Positions 5,741 to 11,490 of a DNA stretch of 12,691 bases are shown here, in pieces (position 1 is the first letter of the stretch; every line of letters begins with the position of its first letter). The stretch is from Candidatus Thorarchaeota archaeon. GTDB lineage: Archaea; Asgardarchaeota; Thorarchaeia; Thorarchaeales; Thorarchaeaceae. The position numbers were made by a program, and so were the translations under genes. The notes beneath the pieces were generated by a model. The model was not told the origin of the DNA. It saw only the letters and a program-made list of their open reading frames with translations, and searched no databases. Location of the stretch: NCBI GenBank assembly GCA_016840855.1, contig JAEORO010000245.1, forward strand, positions 1 to 12,691, in the 5' to 3' direction.

Positions 5741-5770
5741 TATCCGTCTACATATTTGGAGAGTAATAAT

Positions 5771-6424
5771 ATGATTCCTTCCAAATCTTCTGAAGCAACA
5801 TCCGAAATTGTAGAAAAAATGTTGAAAATGGTTAGAGCCAGGTCCCACTCGCTGAAATTTAAATTACTACAACTATTGATGATTTATGGCGAATTGTCCA
5901 CTTCAGAATTGGTTGAAAAAGTCGGAAAATCCAAACCAACTATTCTCAAACATCTAGATGAATTGGAAGATCTTGGAGAAGTGTCATTCCGAACGGAAAT
6001 ATCTCCAGGAGCCTATGATAGACGAATTTATTCTTCAACTAATCCCAGTTGGAGAATTGAAGGGCAAAGTCTGCGAGAACGCGTGCGTAAAAATCCTAAA
6101 CTAGCTGTTGGATACATGAATTTTCAATTATCTCAACTGCTACTTTTGAAGGAAATTATAGATAGTATGGTCGACTATCAAAAACGGTTGAACAACGAAG
6201 TAATGAAGGCATTCAACTCCAAAGAAATTGAAGAAATGATTGACTTATTCAAAGACAATCTAGGTCAAGTTCATCAACAATACCTATCCAAAGCACAGCT
6301 TCATGGAAGGGGACCGGAAACTCCAAAGGAATACCTTAAGCTGGAATTACTTTTACCAATTCGTAGATTGATTGAACAATTAACAAAAAGCGAATGGGAA
6401 AAAGATGGGTCCTTATGGGAATAG
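5771..6424 (+). CDS. ArsR/TrmB-like winged-helix transcriptional regulator
   Basis: LSTSELVEKVGKSKPTILKHLDELEDLGEV...RRIY is a wHTH, followed by a helical C-terminal region. ATG at 5771 has GGAGAG upstream (track start is TTG 5756). Confidence 0.85.
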   Translation: MIPSKSSEATSEIVEKMLKMVRARSHSLKFKLLQLLMIYGELSTSELVEKVGKSKPTILKHLDELEDLGEVSFRTEISPGAYDRRIYSSTNPSWRIEGQSLRERVRKNPKLAVGYMNFQLSQLLLLKEIIDSMVDYQKRLNNEVMKAFNSKEIEEMIDLFKDNLGQVHQQYLSKAQLHGRGPETPKEYLKLELLLPIRRLIEQLTKSEWEKDGSLWE

Positions 6425-6473: not shown

Positions 6474-6523
6474 GAAACTAAAGCACACTAGATACAGCGG
6501 TGAATGACTTCTGGTCCTACTTC
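6469..6523. repeat. Direct repeat copy 2 (55 bp): functional actin 3' end
   Basis: Encodes [11 protein letters not shown]-stop plus 19 nt of 3' UTR on the - strand. Matches 4007-4060. Confidence 0.95.
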
Positions 6524-7627
6524 CTCGAACTCTTTTCGTGAGACCCACATCTTCTGGAAGGTCTTCAGTGAGCCGAGAATGCTACCACCAATCCAGACAG
6601 AGTACTGTCGCTCTGGAGGAGCAATGATTCGGACTTCGATGTTCTCTGGAACTAGCTCGGTAATCTCCTTGTGGAGTCTCTCCTTGAGTCCTGGGAACAT
6701 GGTTGAGCCACCTGAGAGTACGACGTTAGCGTATAGATCACGCCTCAAGTCGACATCACAGGCTTTGATTGACTCGACAATGTGATCGTCGAGTGGCATT
6801 GTATCTAGCCCAATGGCACTTGGATTGAAGAACAGCTCAGGTGCCTGGAACCTCTCTGCACCAACAGTGATCACCTCACCATCAGGTAGCATGTAGGGTT
6901 TGTCAACACCAGCCTTGTCAGCGACTGTTCGCTCCCGCTCGGGATCGAGAGCTACATAACATAGCTTCTCCTTGATGTCCCTGACAATCTCTTTCTCTGC
7001 ACCGCTCACAAAGGAATAACCCCTCTGTCTGAGAAGTCTGCGCAGATATTCAGTGATGTCTCTACCAGCTAGGTCAATTCTTCGGATGGCGTGGTTGATT
7101 GAGAAGCCCTCATAGATTGGTACTATGTGGGTGACACCATCGCCTGAGTCAATGACCAGTCCAGTGGTTCGACCAGATGCATACAGTGACAGTACTGCCT
7201 GTGTGGCAACATACACTGCGGGTACACCGAAGTTATCAAACATAACAGATGCCATGCGCTCTCTGTTTTCTCGGGGGTTGAATGGTGCCTCTGTAAGGAG
7301 CACCGGATTCTCACTTGGGTCTACTTTCAAGTCATTATAGAACGTGTAGCTCCATATTTTCTCAATAGCATCCCAGTCTTCTACGATTCCGTGAGAGATT
7401 GGATAGACCAGACGGAGTACACCACGGAGGTTGATAGCCTCTTCACCAATATAGTAGTCACGTGTGTAGTGGTCCACGTCAGTCATGATTGACTCATAAC
7501 GTGGGTAACCAATCAGTGTGGGCCAGACGCTGCGTGGCTGATCTTCGCCGGCATAACCGTTCTTGCTCAAACCAGTACCATTGTCGATGACAATTGGTTT
7601 TGCGCCAAGAAACTCGTCTTCAGCCAT
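6488..7627 (-). CDS. Actin (Asgard Lokiactin-type)
   Basis: 379 aa, colinear with eukaryotic actin: IDNGTG phosphate-1, [36 protein letters not shown] phosphate-2, [41 protein letters not shown]. The [22 protein letters not shown] segment is as I recall for Asgard Lokiactins. Confidence 0.97.
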
Positions 7628-7637
7628 TTTTTATCGG

Positions 7638-7642
7638 TCCTC
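7638..7642 (-). promoter_or_regulatory. SD-like GAGGA upstream of actin
   Basis: + strand TCCTC at 7638-7642, 10 nt upstream of the ATG on the - strand. Confidence 0.55.
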
Positions 7643-7732
7643 GTTTAGTGATTTGTTCGGACAAATCCAAAGAAAGATTCGTCAAGCTCAGAGCTTTGAG
7701 ACTCTTTTCTAGCAATTCGTTCTTGCCGAATC

Positions 7733-7740
7733 TATTTAAG
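7733..7740 (-). promoter_or_regulatory. Putative TATA box of actin (CTTAAATA)
   Basis: Fits the archaeal TATA consensus. The identical octamer lies upstream of the HD gene (10921-10928). Confidence 0.5.
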
Positions 7741-7798
7741 GGTACGTCCGATAAGTGTCAACTATTTCGAAAAGTATCTAAGTTATGTATAATTCATC

Positions 7799-7825
7799 GC
7801 CATTTCAAGCCATTTTTAGCCATTT
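7799..7825. repeat. Three GCCATTT direct repeats with 10-bp period
   Basis: gccatttcaa gccattttta gccatttctg, starting at 7799, 7809 and 7819. Confidence 0.85.
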
Positions 7826-7898
7826 CTGGGAGTTTACCTTCGATAAGTATAATAATAACCTACATGTAATTACTAGATAATATATCCGCGAATGGTGC

Positions 7899-8678
7899 TT
7901 GATATTGCTCCGAAAACCACTTGAAGAGATAATTCGAGAAGAGATTGAAACAGTCAGAGCAAGAAGAATCATCCTCGACCAGCTTGAAGGAGGGCTGATG
8001 ACAGGAGCAGAACTCAGAGAAAAAATTGCTACTGATATCAAAGCACAGCTGGTGTCTGAGGGAGCTAGCAGAAAAGAGATAGAGAAGGTGAAGGTCACTA
8101 GTCCGAAACTCTATCATAATACGCAGCGACTTGAGGAACTTGGAATTATAGTCAGTTGGAAACAATCTCAATATCGCCTCTTTGAGTTGGACCCGCGAGC
8201 AATACATCCGGTTCGCAGGGCTCTTAAGATCTCAAAACCACTAATGTATATTACTTCGCTGAACAATCCTGAGGACCAGCGCCCGTTCGTTCAGTGGTTA
8301 GTGAACAATCAACACTTCAACCCGAAGAAGCTCTTGGTCTTTGTAGAAGCAAGTCAATGGACTCGTGGAGTTTCCAGAATTGTGGACCGCTTCATTCCAG
8401 ATGATGCCTTTCGGCGATGGACAACAGAATGGAGAGAAGTACCGGAAAATGTCACAAGGACAGAGGACGAGCGAGAGTATGGGAGTCTTCAGATGACTGT
8501 AGATTTCATAGAGAATGAACTTCTAAACCACATTCAGACTCATGATATTGTCTTTGACCTGACCCTTGGGCCTAGACTAATTACACTGGCGATGGCAAAG
8601 CTTGCAACTGAGTACTCCATCACCGCATTTCATGTGTCCACATATGATGCCAGCGACGCTGAGGTCAGCCATTACTGA
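7899..8678 (+). CDS. Winged-helix regulator with a C-terminal CARF-like Rossmann domain
   Basis: N-terminal wHTH (MTGAELREKI...VTSPKLYHNTQRLEELGII...YRLFEL). The C-terminal half has CARF-like strand order: LMYITSL, PKKLLVFV, IVFDLTLGPRLITLAM (cf. DxTxGxR/K), AFHV. TTG start uncertain. Confidence 0.65.
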   Translation: MILLRKPLEEIIREEIETVRARRIILDQLEGGLMTGAELREKIATDIKAQLVSEGASRKEIEKVKVTSPKLYHNTQRLEELGIIVSWKQSQYRLFELDPRAIHPVRRALKISKPLMYITSLNNPEDQRPFVQWLVNNQHFNPKKLLVFVEASQWTRGVSRIVDRFIPDDAFRRWTTEWREVPENVTRTEDEREYGSLQMTVDFIENELLNHIQTHDIVFDLTLGPRLITLAMAKLATEYSITAFHVSTYDASDAEVSHY

Positions 8679-8691
8679 GGAAAGTGATTCT

Positions 8692-9390
8692 TTGAAACAA
8701 AAAAACCCGATTCCTGCACTCTCTTGGAAGCCAATTCACATCGAGGAGAAACTCGGACACCTTTTCGACAGAGTTCAGAAAACACAGAGGCTAACGCCTG
8801 TGAATAATACAAGGCTCTTGAACAAGATGGATAGATGGATTCAAGACATGGAGTACATCCAAGACGGTCTGAAGAGAATAAGGGAAGACCTTGTGCCAGA
8901 ATTACAGAGATTGCTTGGCGTTGGTTTTGGTTCTCCCGAATTAATACAGGTTGCAATGTTTCAGCCTAGTACGAAGAACATCTTCTTGGAGTTGGAAACC
9001 CAGTACAAGGGAGATGATGACGACCCACTCGGACAAGAGGGGTTTGGAATGATGACCAACCTGAGTGAGATGGCGAAAGTCTTAGCACTGGTCGGTGATG
9101 GGGTTATATCATCTGCAGTCATTCAACATCTCTGGAGACCGCACCTAAGTAATGCTGGCGAGATTACCCTGAGGAAAGCGGAAATAGTTTCGAATGAGAA
9201 CATGGCAAAGCTCTGCGACGACTGGAATCTCTATGAATATCGCATCCATTTTGATCCTGATGTTCCAAGCAAATCAGAGATAGAGCACGACAAAGGTACA
9301 CTCATAGAGGCTATCTATGGTATTATTTACATTGAACATGAATACAAGCGCGTCGTTGATTTAGTGAAACATTTGATCAATATTCGGTAA
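8692..9390 (+). CDS. Ribonuclease III-family nuclease domain protein lacking a dsRBD (Mini-III-like)
   Basis: Motifs F..PELIQVAM, LALVGDGVI, IVSNENMAKL and GTLIEAIYGIIY; the protein ends shortly after the catalytic domain. In-frame TTG at 8692 follows GAGG/GTGA and avoids the 77-nt overlap implied by the track start at 8602. Confidence 0.75.
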   Translation: MKQKNPIPALSWKPIHIEEKLGHLFDRVQKTQRLTPVNNTRLLNKMDRWIQDMEYIQDGLKRIREDLVPELQRLLGVGFGSPELIQVAMFQPSTKNIFLELETQYKGDDDDPLGQEGFGMMTNLSEMAKVLALVGDGVISSAVIQHLWRPHLSNAGEITLRKAEIVSNENMAKLCDDWNLYEYRIHFDPDVPSKSEIEHDKGTLIEAIYGIIYIEHEYKRVVDLVKHLINIR

Positions 9391-10885
9391 GATCATATTC
9401 ATCTTCTCTATGTGAGGGAGCATCAGAAATCGGGAACGCCTTGTCAAACCGCCTCCGCACATTCTCAGCAATCTTTGAGTCTGCATATACTCGAACCGAT
9501 GGAATGGTACTTGCCTGTTGTTTCAAAATATGCATCAATGGACGACCTTCCTTGGTTTCATCAAGGCTGACAATATCAAAGCCCTGCTCACCACCTACTA
9601 ACAATGGGATTTTCCCAAGTGTCTTCTCACCAAGTGGAGGAGAGACCACGTCTATCACCACACTCCCGGGCTCATCAGAAATCTCATTTTCTGCATCGAC
9701 CAATTTTTTGATGTCATGAAGCATGTCACGAAGTAGATTTTGTGATTCACTCTCAAATGATGCAAGTGGTCGAGACAATACCACTTTGAACAATCTACGG
9801 TACCGGATTCGTGCCGCATACTCTCTAACAAAATCAATCTCAGATTCTTCTAACCATCGAAAGAGGTCTCCATCCGTCATTCTTGTGAATAGCCCTATAC
9901 ACTCATTCTTCGATAGGCGTTCTTCCTGCATGCGGAAGTATGTTGCTTTGGAAATCATCGCTTCAGCAAGCTTAACAGCATGATGAAGATAGAGATCACT
10001 GAACATCCAATTCCTACTGAGTATCAATGCCTCTAGCGAGTGGATGGCTTTTAGCATGAAAGCGCGTACGTACATGCCTTCCCGATTCTTGACCACGCGA
10101 TTTGTCAACATTACTCTCTCAGCTGGAAATATACCAAGCTGAACTCCGCTGAAGTGGGCATCTCTGATGAGATAGTCTGTCTTATCAATGTCAAGAGGAT
10201 GGTCTAGAAACTCAGAGAGAAGGCCCATAACAGGGTCTTTTGTATGCCTTCGAAAGATATTCACAACATCTTTTGGCTCAAAGTCATTCTGTAAGAGAAC
10301 ATCAGTGAGACTGCTGTTCAGTATCAAGTACGCGCCAAGATCTATATGATCAACACCAACCCATGCATCCAGCGCGTACTCTATTGTGTGGCTTGTTGGA
10401 GGATGTCCAACATCATGAAGCAACGCTGCAGTCCTGAACAATTTTTGGTGGTGCTCCTCAAGAAGCTGTGAGAATGGAACGAAGCATGCAGTATCCAAAT
10501 CATCACAATAATTCACAACGCGAATTGACTTCTGCGCGAGGAAATTCGTGCCGATACAGTGCTCGAAGCGAGTATGGGTAGCACCAGGATAAACCAGATG
10601 AGCTGGCCCCAACTGCCGCACATATCTCAAACGGAGCATCTCCCAAGTAGAGATGATGTCAAGCTCCCAAGGTTCAAGGAGTATTGCACCATGAACTGGA
10701 TCCTGAACAGCTTTTTGGCGGGTGTGTTTCTCACCCATTCTTATATAGCGATTATGCTCTGTGATTGCCTTCTGAATCTGTTCCCAGTCAGCTCCTTTCT
10801 GTTCACGAGCAGTCTCTATCTGAGCTTCCCGAAATCCAGTCAAGCGGATGAGCTTGATTACATCATTATCGAGATCATCTGACAT
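9377..10885 (-). CDS. HD-domain phosphohydrolase, SAMHD1/COG1078-like (putative dNTP triphosphohydrolase)
   Basis: Motifs DPVHG, RLRYVRQLG...VYPGATHTRFEHCIG, LLHDVGH.P.SH..E, DIDKTDYLIRD and LYLHH. Metal ligands H-HD-D are intact. Confidence 0.9.
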   Translation of the reverse strand: MSDDLDNDVIKLIRLTGFREAQIETAREQKGADWEQIQKAITEHNRYIRMGEKHTRQKAVQDPVHGAILLEPWELDIISTWEMLRLRYVRQLGPAHLVYPGATHTRFEHCIGTNFLAQKSIRVVNYCDDLDTACFVPFSQLLEEHHQKLFRTAALLHDVGHPPTSHTIEYALDAWVGVDHIDLGAYLILNSSLTDVLLQNDFEPKDVVNIFRRHTKDPVMGLLSEFLDHPLDIDKTDYLIRDAHFSGVQLGIFPAERVMLTNRVVKNREGMYVRAFMLKAIHSLEALILSRNWMFSDLYLHHAVKLAEAMISKATYFRMQEERLSKNECIGLFTRMTDGDLFRWLEESEIDFVREYAARIRYRRLFKVVLSRPLASFESESQNLLRDMLHDIKKLVDAENEISDEPGSVVIDVVSPPLGEKTLGKIPLLVGGEQGFDIVSLDETKEGRPLMHILKQQASTIPSVRVYADSKIAENVRRRFDKAFPISDAPSHREDEYDLTEY

Positions 10886-10944: not shown

Positions 10945-11490
10945 CTATCTTAAATTCCGTGACTTCTTCACACGTTCTCGAGCAGCATTATACTCAAGCG
11001 TGTTCTCTTTTTCCATTGCTCGGCAATATTCATTCGGTTGGCAGTATCCCCAACGACGCATGACATTGCATGATGTGGAACCTCGTGCTCTATAGAATGG
11101 TGCATCAATGAGATTTGTTTTTGTGAGATAATTTGTTACAGTCTTAATGCTCTTCTTAGCAAAAGCCATTCTTATACACGGAGGCGCACGTTCCACTGTC
11201 TTCCACTGAACTATCTTAAACAGCTTATACCACAGTAGACATTTCTTAGCCACATAAAGGAAATCACATTTCAGACAAGTCTTGGTTTGAATTGAGAGTT
11301 CGCATAGCTCATCGCGACTCTGTTTTGCAAGACCTGAACCTCTGAGGAGATGGAACTTGATTTGGACAAAGAGCTCAGGAGTGAATGATCCAAACTCCTG
11401 TATGAATTGTCGCAATTCTTGTGCGACTATTTCTGAATTCTCAGTCCAGAGTGTTTTATCCAGATTTGGACTGCTAGTTTCATCTCTCAT
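10945..11490 (-). CDS. Small Cys-rich protein resembling the primase large subunit (PriL) C-terminal Fe-S domain
   Basis: APPCIR...SCNVMRRWGYC.PNEYC....NTLEY resembles the PriL pattern PPC...SC..m...g.C....C...NPL.Y. Only 181 aa. Confidence 0.6.
   Translation of the reverse strand: MRDETSSPNLDKTLWTENSEIVAQELRQFIQEFGSFTPELFVQIKFHLLRGSGLAKQSRDELCELSIQTKTCLKCDFLYVAKKCLLWYKLFKIVQWKTVERAPPCIRMAFAKKSIKTVTNYLTKTNLIDAPFYRARGSTSCNVMRRWGYCQPNEYCRAMEKENTLEYNAARERVKKSRNLR

Follow-up and report, generated by a model that had tools for sequence, protein, structure and literature searches.

The catalogued family closest to the regulator described here is CARF_m5 of the PADLOC collection (PDLC01987), whose profile match covers both the winged helix-turn-helix (wHTH) and the CARF part of the protein, while its label names only 'CARF', without a DNA-binding domain or a context. 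The family name presumably follows the minor clades of the CARF-superfamily classification; such a classification with minor clades was reportedly made by Makarova and co-workers in 2020. In the full-text literature searched, with the 2020 CARF classification and a paper on Asgard CRISPR-related systems lying outside its scope, no link between Asgard actin and a CARF protein was found, nor was any description of the actin linkage, promoter architecture or Cas10 independence of CARF_m5. As far as found, CARF_m5 is a catalogued minor CARF family that is apparently undescribed.

Among characterized proteins, Csa3 of type I-A/III CRISPR loci (2wte, 6w11, 6wxq) likewise combines a wHTH with a CARF domain, and the CARF fold is shared (Z 11.6–11.9, rmsd 2.8–2.9 Å over 125–127 residues), and both Csa3 and, by prediction, the protein studied here are dimeric one-component regulators. 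However, Csa3 is built as CARF followed by wHTH, whereas the order is reversed in the present protein and its wHTH is PadR/RosR-like. Moreover, Csa3 is cas-linked and belongs to TIGR01884, whereas the present protein has neither property and its gene is conserved as a core gene next to actin. Over its N-terminal 105 residues, the protein can be superposed on RosR of Halobacterium salinarum and on PadR (6qfd, 6ez1, 5dym), but RosR and the PadR-family proteins are without a CARF domain. The likeness to ring nucleases of the Crn1 type is found at the level of the fold only.

The wHTH-CARF gene and the fold of its product

The window, i.e., the whole stretch of 12,691 nucleotides that was analysed, comes from the Thorarchaeota assembly GCA_016840855.1, in which the regulator is single-copy and only one actin-like gene was found at E<1e-5. 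The ORF at 7899–8678 is a real, conserved gene and no chance ORF, because 85 homologues were retrieved at E≤1e-3 with a word-indexed search and the AlphaFold2 model, based on a 32-row alignment, reached a mean pLDDT of 86.1 and a pTM of 0.82. An exhaustive phmmer search over 1.84 billion representatives returned 23 homologues. Since most homologues are 257 aa long and begin at the third codon of the ORF, the start was placed at either 7899 or 7905. The features of the locus are collected in Table 1.

Table 1. Features of the actin/wHTH-CARF locus, with positions counted from the first letter of the window
Feature	Position	Strand	Basis or remark
Actin	6488–7627	-	Pfam Actin, E 9.8e-133
Divergent promoter region shared with actin, 271 bp	7628–7898		Putative
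GAGGACCGA block just before the actin ATG, Shine-Dalgarno-like	7634–7642	-	Conservation
Small hairpin in the presumed actin 5' leader	7690–7705	-	RNAalifold on alignment A3; weak signal
Putative actin TATA box, TTAAATA, 112 nt upstream of the actin ATG	7733–7739	-	Function putative
TTTCGAAA palindrome, candidate operator	7765–7772		Spacing; function putative
Putative TATA box of the wHTH-CARF gene, TATGTATAA	7784–7792	+	Putative
wHTH-CARF gene	7899–8678	+	259 aa from TTG 7899, or 257 aa from TTG 7905
N-terminal wHTH, residues ~6–111	7914–8231	+	Secondary structure, VIA-align
C-terminal CARF domain, residues 112–259	8232–8675	+	VIA-align, Foldseek
CARF motif after beta-4, D220-L-T-L-G-P-R226	8556–8576	+	In the predicted dimer interface
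RNase III-domain gene, 225 aa	8713–9390	+	Pfam Ribonuclease_3, E 2e-11

The first-pass annotation had described actin as the neighbour, a 271-bp intergenic region shared with it and no CRISPR-Cas in view. The Pfam match and the length of the spacer bore out the first two statements, and a scan of 13 ORFs of the window revealed no cas gene. Behind actin, at 5756–6424 (+), lies a gene for a 222-aa ArsR-type wHTH protein without a CARF domain, which matches the Csa3/CasR HTH profiles (PADLOC Csa3, E 6e-11; NCBIfam cas_HTH, E 1.6e-6).

Family profiles placed the regulator in CARF_m5. The 'CARF_m5--CARF' profile matched residues 14–247 over profile positions 4–187 of 195 (E 2.8e-25, 87.5 bits), and it was matched by 24/24 members of the pan-Asgard alignment A2, with a best E of 3.3e-81. 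In Pfam, the protein had no meaningful match (only STATa_Ig, E 0.0077, below the cut-off), and in NCBIfam no family was found at E≤0.1, TIGR01884 (cas_HTH) included. A profile search of the PDB sequences gave nothing better than E 0.29. The PadR profile PF03551 did not match the window protein and matched 10 of the 24 relatives weakly, with E down to 5.4e-6; the match of relative no. 1 scored 19.7 bits against the cut-off of 27 bits.

In the N-terminal domain, the predicted secondary structure placed the recognition helix at residues 68–80 (SPKLYHNTQRLEE) and the wing at residues 84–97. A tyrosine and an asparagine of the recognition helix are invariant across alignment A2. When the domain was superposed with VIA-align, RosR (6qfd) matched with Z 10.4 and an rmsd of 2.1 Å over 88 residues; CzrA, NolR and PadR (5dym, Z 9.8) matched as well, with Z of about 10 over residues 2–117. 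An insertion before the recognition helix had been suspected from the single sequence, and alignment A2 confirmed it: Thorarchaeota have approximately 12–18 more residues between helix 2 and the recognition helix than the other Asgard relatives, which corresponds to a Thorarchaeota-specific insert at about residues 49–66.

The C-terminal part had been called CARF-like, with a domain order reverse to that of Csa3 and with IVFDLTLGPRLITLAM inside a Rossmann-like region. These assignments stood. The AlphaFold2 model of residues 112–259 has a CARF fold by both Foldseek and VIA-align, this domain follows the wHTH, and the named segment was located at residues 216–231. The Foldseek matches listed against the PDB at E≤1e-3 (33 rows of 49 chains) were CARF proteins, among them Csm6, Card1, Cdn1, Cam1, ring nucleases, Csa3, Can2 and Cad1, with E from 8e-6 to 8e-4. 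VIA-align scored residues 112–259 against CARF domains at Z 11.6–13.4, including VC1899 (13.4), Cdn1 (13.2), Csm6 (12.7), Can2 (12.3) and Card1 (12.1).

The protein is predicted to form a CARF-type homodimer. A two-copy prediction gave an ipSAE of 0.69 (0.69, 0.72 and 0.68 in three runs) against 0.01 for the best control, and at least 84% of the contacts agreed between runs, with a partner pLDDT of at least 86. In the calibration, 20 of 30 proteins with a solved homodimer structure attained the ipSAE mark, compared with 1 of 23 proteins solved as single chains; as CARF dimers have already been solved, the pass may reflect likeness to known structures. The predicted interface takes in residues 192–198, 221–227, 229–237 and 244–250, including the motif loop after beta-4.

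Distribution and actin linkage in Asgard archaea

The CARF_m5 family of this gene is Asgard-specific. The named close homologues were all labelled Thorarchaeota, except for one Odinarchaeota label and generic Promethearchaeota labels. The more distant relatives, of about 220 aa and 28–34% identity, have the same two domains and carry Hod-, Frey/Jord-, Baldr-, Hermod-, Ran- and 'Asgardarchaeia' labels. When 400 genomes of the phylum were searched with a profile, the gene was found in 146, and within the window's own family in 79 of 86 with the present genome counted. Nearly all genomes of families f2–f6, f14–f19, f28 and f29 (numbers are our own) carry it; by identity to named proteins, f5 corresponds to Baldr, f14 to Hermod, f16 to Frey/Jord and f28 to a Hod-labelled group. 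In the same search, the gene was absent from f8 (0/31), f10 (0/12) and f13 (0/12), and the matches in f22 (13/135 genomes) were weak and partial only. Many Asgard families have actin without the wHTH-CARF family (f8, f10 and f13, with only the weak partial matches in f22).

The linkage to actin was examined in 69 Thorarchaeota loci, which were taken as contigs of one genome per species and in which the actin of the window was located by tblastn. Actin lay divergently upstream of the regulator in 66 of the 69, that is, in 66/66 loci with upstream DNA; the loci L030, L034 and L041 cannot show the neighbour because they begin less than 400 nt before the regulator gene. In one locus (L024), the spacer between the two genes was 1.5 kb. 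Within Thorarchaeota, the identity of the regulator fell to as low as 34%, and that of actin was 92–100%.

Outside the window's family, 41 genomes had enough flanking DNA for the linkage to be judged, and actin was adjacent in 33 of them, with 31 divergent and 2 same-strand arrangements. The divergent pair was seen in f2 (1 genome), f3 (1), f4 (3), f5 (1), f6 (3), f14 (10, in two of which only the first 23 actin residues were present at the end of the locus), f16 (6), f28 (2) and f29 (4). In the two genomes of f17 (L106 and L107), actin was found on the same strand, directly downstream of the regulator at a distance of approximately 250–350 nt. The pair was not adjacent in the remaining 8 genomes (f15, 4; f18, 2; f19, 2), in one of which actin was 3.3 kb away. 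Where the pair was split, the neighbours of the regulator were a hexapeptide transferase, a ComB-type phosphatase, CDC48 and a Ras-family GTPase, and a check of these lineages for another cytoskeleton gene beside the regulator found none. The gene that converges on the regulator encodes a ComB-type 2-phosphosulfolactate phosphatase in f15 and f18 (L109:3319–4014 and L118:6672–7355) and a Ras-family small GTPase in f19 (L110:4675–5190 and L111:3731–4237). In five genomes of families without the regulator, actin had a different, unrelated upstream neighbour. The linkage to actin is therefore conserved, and more widely than the first-pass annotation had proposed.

The putative divergent promoter region

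The sequence between the two genes was compared by anchoring 61 Thorarchaeota spacers (60 loci and the window) on TTAAATA and reading them on the actin strand; in a MAFFT alignment of 66 Thorarchaeota spacers, gaps were so many that only the TATA box and the block preceding the ATG could be made out. Among 65 distinct Thorarchaeota spacers, the putative actin TATA box was represented by ATTTAAG in 63 and by CTTAAATA in 59, and that of the wHTH-CARF gene by ATGTATA in 39. The GAGGACCGA block was present in 57 and was invariant in the 34-row alignment A3. The block is 9 nt long and reaches further than a plain ribosome-binding site. Actin appears to be preceded by a leader of approximately 85 nt (7628–7719, - strand). 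Every one of the 6 pairs of the hairpin in this region is backed by one or more compensatory changes, although the signal is weak, and Rfam gave no match in the window. Metatranscriptome contigs from four runs of one study mapped on actin only, one of them reaching 7693, 66 nt upstream of the ATG; these contigs are from relatives at 90–99% identity and cannot show transcription starts, levels or absence.

The palindrome TTTCGAAA, a candidate operator on sequence grounds, is located between the actin TATA box and the TATA-like element TATGTATAA of the opposite strand. Its centre is 29 nt from the former, and it lies about 15 nt upstream of the latter. In Thorarchaeota, the distance from the centre of TTCGAA to TTAAATA was 29–30 nt in 17 loci, the window included, and 19–20 nt in 7; TTCGAA was present only at other distances in 6 more loci, and the remaining spacers were without it. 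In families f6, f16, f28 and f29, whose spacers cannot be aligned with each other, a different palindrome, YGATATCR, occurred exactly once per spacer in 15/15 spacers. Its density was 1.55 per kb in the spacers versus 0.10 per kb elsewhere in these loci, it was embedded in a longer near-palindrome (e.g. ATAGATGATATCGTCTAT), and its centre was 29–30 nt from a TATA-like box in all 15 loci, the palindrome and TATA patterns having been picked after inspection of the sequences.

YGATATCR was absent from the spacers of f2, f3, f4, f5 and f14, i.e., five of the nine non-Thorarchaeota families with the divergent pair. An unbiased, palindrome-aware Gibbs sampler recovered a GATATC-type site in some non-Thorarchaeota lineages, but no single motif common to all lineages was found among 23 representative spacers. 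When the genome was searched for further copies of the Thorarchaeota site, short k-mers occurred in chance-like numbers and no regulon was called; a 13-mer of the site was unique in the genome, as would be expected of any 13-mer.

A divergent regulator–target pair would be expected to look like this: a symmetric site at a fixed distance from a TATA box, and a dimeric wHTH protein with an invariant tyrosine and asparagine in its recognition helix. With some reservation, we lean towards a dimeric one-component transcription factor that acts on both the actin promoter and its own promoter.

Regulatory target, ligand and significance

The most serious competitor of this explanation is that the protein regulates its own operon only, and that its place next to actin reflects a gene order frozen around a core gene of high expression, with no regulatory effect on actin. 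We regard this as unlikely, though it has several points in its favour. The RNase III-domain gene follows the regulator on the same strand after 34 nt and was present in 67 of the 69 Thorarchaeota loci, the candidate site is nearer to the TATA box of the regulator (~15 nt) than to that of actin (~30 nt), and actin is transcribed in many Asgard lineages that are without the wHTH-CARF family. However, the gene is linked to actin in at least 11 families but to the RNase III-domain gene in Thorarchaeota only. The 29–30 nt spacing is, moreover, to the TATA-like box on the actin side and recurs across families with unalignable spacers, and the gene of f17 has moved and yet remains directly upstream of actin on the same strand.

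The operon itself deserves description. The ORF list put the start of the downstream ORF at 8602, which would give a 77-nt overlap with the regulator. This overlap was rejected, as the N-terminal conservation begins near 'ALSWKPI', and the start was placed at TTG 8713, 34 nt after the regulator stop at 8678, because the frame of a relative opens only after the stop of its regulator. The RNase III-domain gene is probably co-transcribed with the regulator, and no other RNase III domain was found in this genome. It had been proposed that the regulator controls actin and/or this RNase. Control of the RNase III-like gene is plausible, since it stands on the same strand after a 34-nt gap, but that link is confined to Thorarchaeota, whereas the one to actin is Asgard-wide. 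The RNase III-domain protein has an N-terminal extension of approximately 120 aa with a very conserved MFQPSTKN motif, and by eye two of the four acidic catalytic positions of bacterial RNase III seem to be replaced. Further downstream are an HD plus HD_assoc_2 hydrolase with weak dGTPase-like matches (9377–10885, -) and a 181-aa ORF without a family (10945–11490, -), which adjoin the regulator operon in most of the 69 Thorarchaeota loci. Like the RNase III-domain gene, both were found downstream in Thorarchaeota loci only.

The first-pass annotation had also proposed that the protein senses a nucleotide second messenger, on the background that CARF domains bind cyclic oligoadenylates. The CARF motif after beta-4 is [DN]-x-[ST]-x-x-x-[RK], and the residue after D-x-[TS]-x-G-x is the basic pocket residue of CARF proteins. 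The window protein carries this motif in full. The basic residue was R or K in 40 of 42 distinct non-Thorarchaeota Asgard sequences. At the same position, the 69 distinct Thorarchaeota sequences had P (44), T (11), S (10), R (2), H (1) and A (1), so that R226 of the window protein is one of two exceptions with R. Among the Thorarchaeota members, the loop that follows beta-1 (TS[LM]xxPEDQRP) is strongly conserved instead, and there is an additional conserved stretch around residues 164–182. As judged from these sequences, the CARF pocket is remodelled in Thorarchaeota and the sensor may be degenerate there; because the pocket has diverged, the signal may have changed or been lost.

The supply of such a ligand was considered as well. 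No Cas10 was found in this 92%-complete genome with three models, two from NCBIfam for Cas10 and the Pfam one for its palm domain, each of which was positive in 5–7 of 14 control genomes. The palm domain was found in 12 of the 86 family genomes, as compared with 79 of 86 for the wHTH-CARF gene, and in one genome of the window's genus (27 genomes and the present one). Since no Cas10 was found in the genome, Cas10 is rare in the family and the basic residue has mostly been lost, sensing of cyclic oligoadenylates probably does not take place here, and a Cas10-made cyclic oligoadenylate is a doubtful ligand in this organism.

The same evidence bears on the explanation that the protein is a regulator of the Csa3 kind, linked to CRISPR or defence, whose signal would be cyclic oligoadenylates from a type III system elsewhere in the genome. 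The CARF fold does resemble that of cA4-bound Csa3 (6wxq, Z 11.9 and an rmsd of 2.9 Å over 126 residues; 6w11, Z 11.6), the window protein has the full D-x-T-x-x-x-R motif, and the non-Thorarchaeota relatives largely keep the R or K. Against this stand the Cas10 results and the loss of the basic residue in all but 2 of the 69 Thorarchaeota sequences; besides, no cas gene was seen in the window, NCBIfam gave no Csa3 match and the domain order is reversed. We therefore hold this explanation to be very improbable. Just as improbable is an enzymatic or RNA-binding CARF domain, e.g., a ring nuclease or an RNA-end sensor (RtcR reportedly senses RNA ends with a 2',3'-cyclic phosphate), that works with the RNase III-domain protein on RNA more than on promoters, since the matches to the ring nucleases Sso2081, Sis0455 and Sis0811 in Foldseek and VIA-align, the coupling to the genome's only RNase III-domain gene in Thorarchaeota and the small conserved hairpin in the actin leader are opposed by a complete wHTH with a conserved recognition helix in every member and by the lineage-specific nature of the RNase III link.

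For the preferred explanation, a dimeric regulator of actin and of its own operon, the following course of events is proposed. The PadR/RosR-like winged helix would read DNA, while the C-terminal CARF domain would dimerize and, by analogy with other CARF proteins, form a small-molecule pocket on the two-fold axis. The dimer would bind a short palindrome between the back-to-back core promoters, here presumably TTTCGAAA at 7765–7772, and once bound it would tune transcription on both sides, that of actin and that of the regulator operon, to which the RNase III-domain gene belongs as well in Thorarchaeota. A ligand may control the regulator, and this ligand is probably no cyclic oligoadenylate made by Cas10. 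The folds, the membership in CARF_m5, the synteny and the position of the palindrome, along with the predicted dimer, are the observations from which we infer DNA binding, an effect on actin and ligand control. A bolder form of the proposal, which is possible but distinctly speculative, would make the protein a CRISPR-independent, small-molecule-gated switch at the promoter of the eukaryote-like actin of Asgard archaea, a housekeeping CARF protein that couples a nucleotide-type signal to the cytoskeleton through an operator at a fixed 30 nt from the actin TATA box, in an arrangement that predates the split of the Asgard classes.

The control of the actin cytoskeleton in Asgard archaea, a matter still open, has a bearing on how eukaryotic cells arose. 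Because the pair is kept in many Asgard lineages, the wHTH-CARF gene is a testable candidate switch for archaeal actin, and not an antiviral part. As the single actin gene has a small soluble protein as its genetic partner in many of these lineages, the question of actin control becomes testable with the recombinant protein and the 271-bp DNA. If the protein regulates only itself, the locus would be an ordinary conserved gene pair. If the preferred explanation is true, the protein would clearly exemplify how a CARF sensor domain, a type of domain familiar from CRISPR signalling, can act outside defence.
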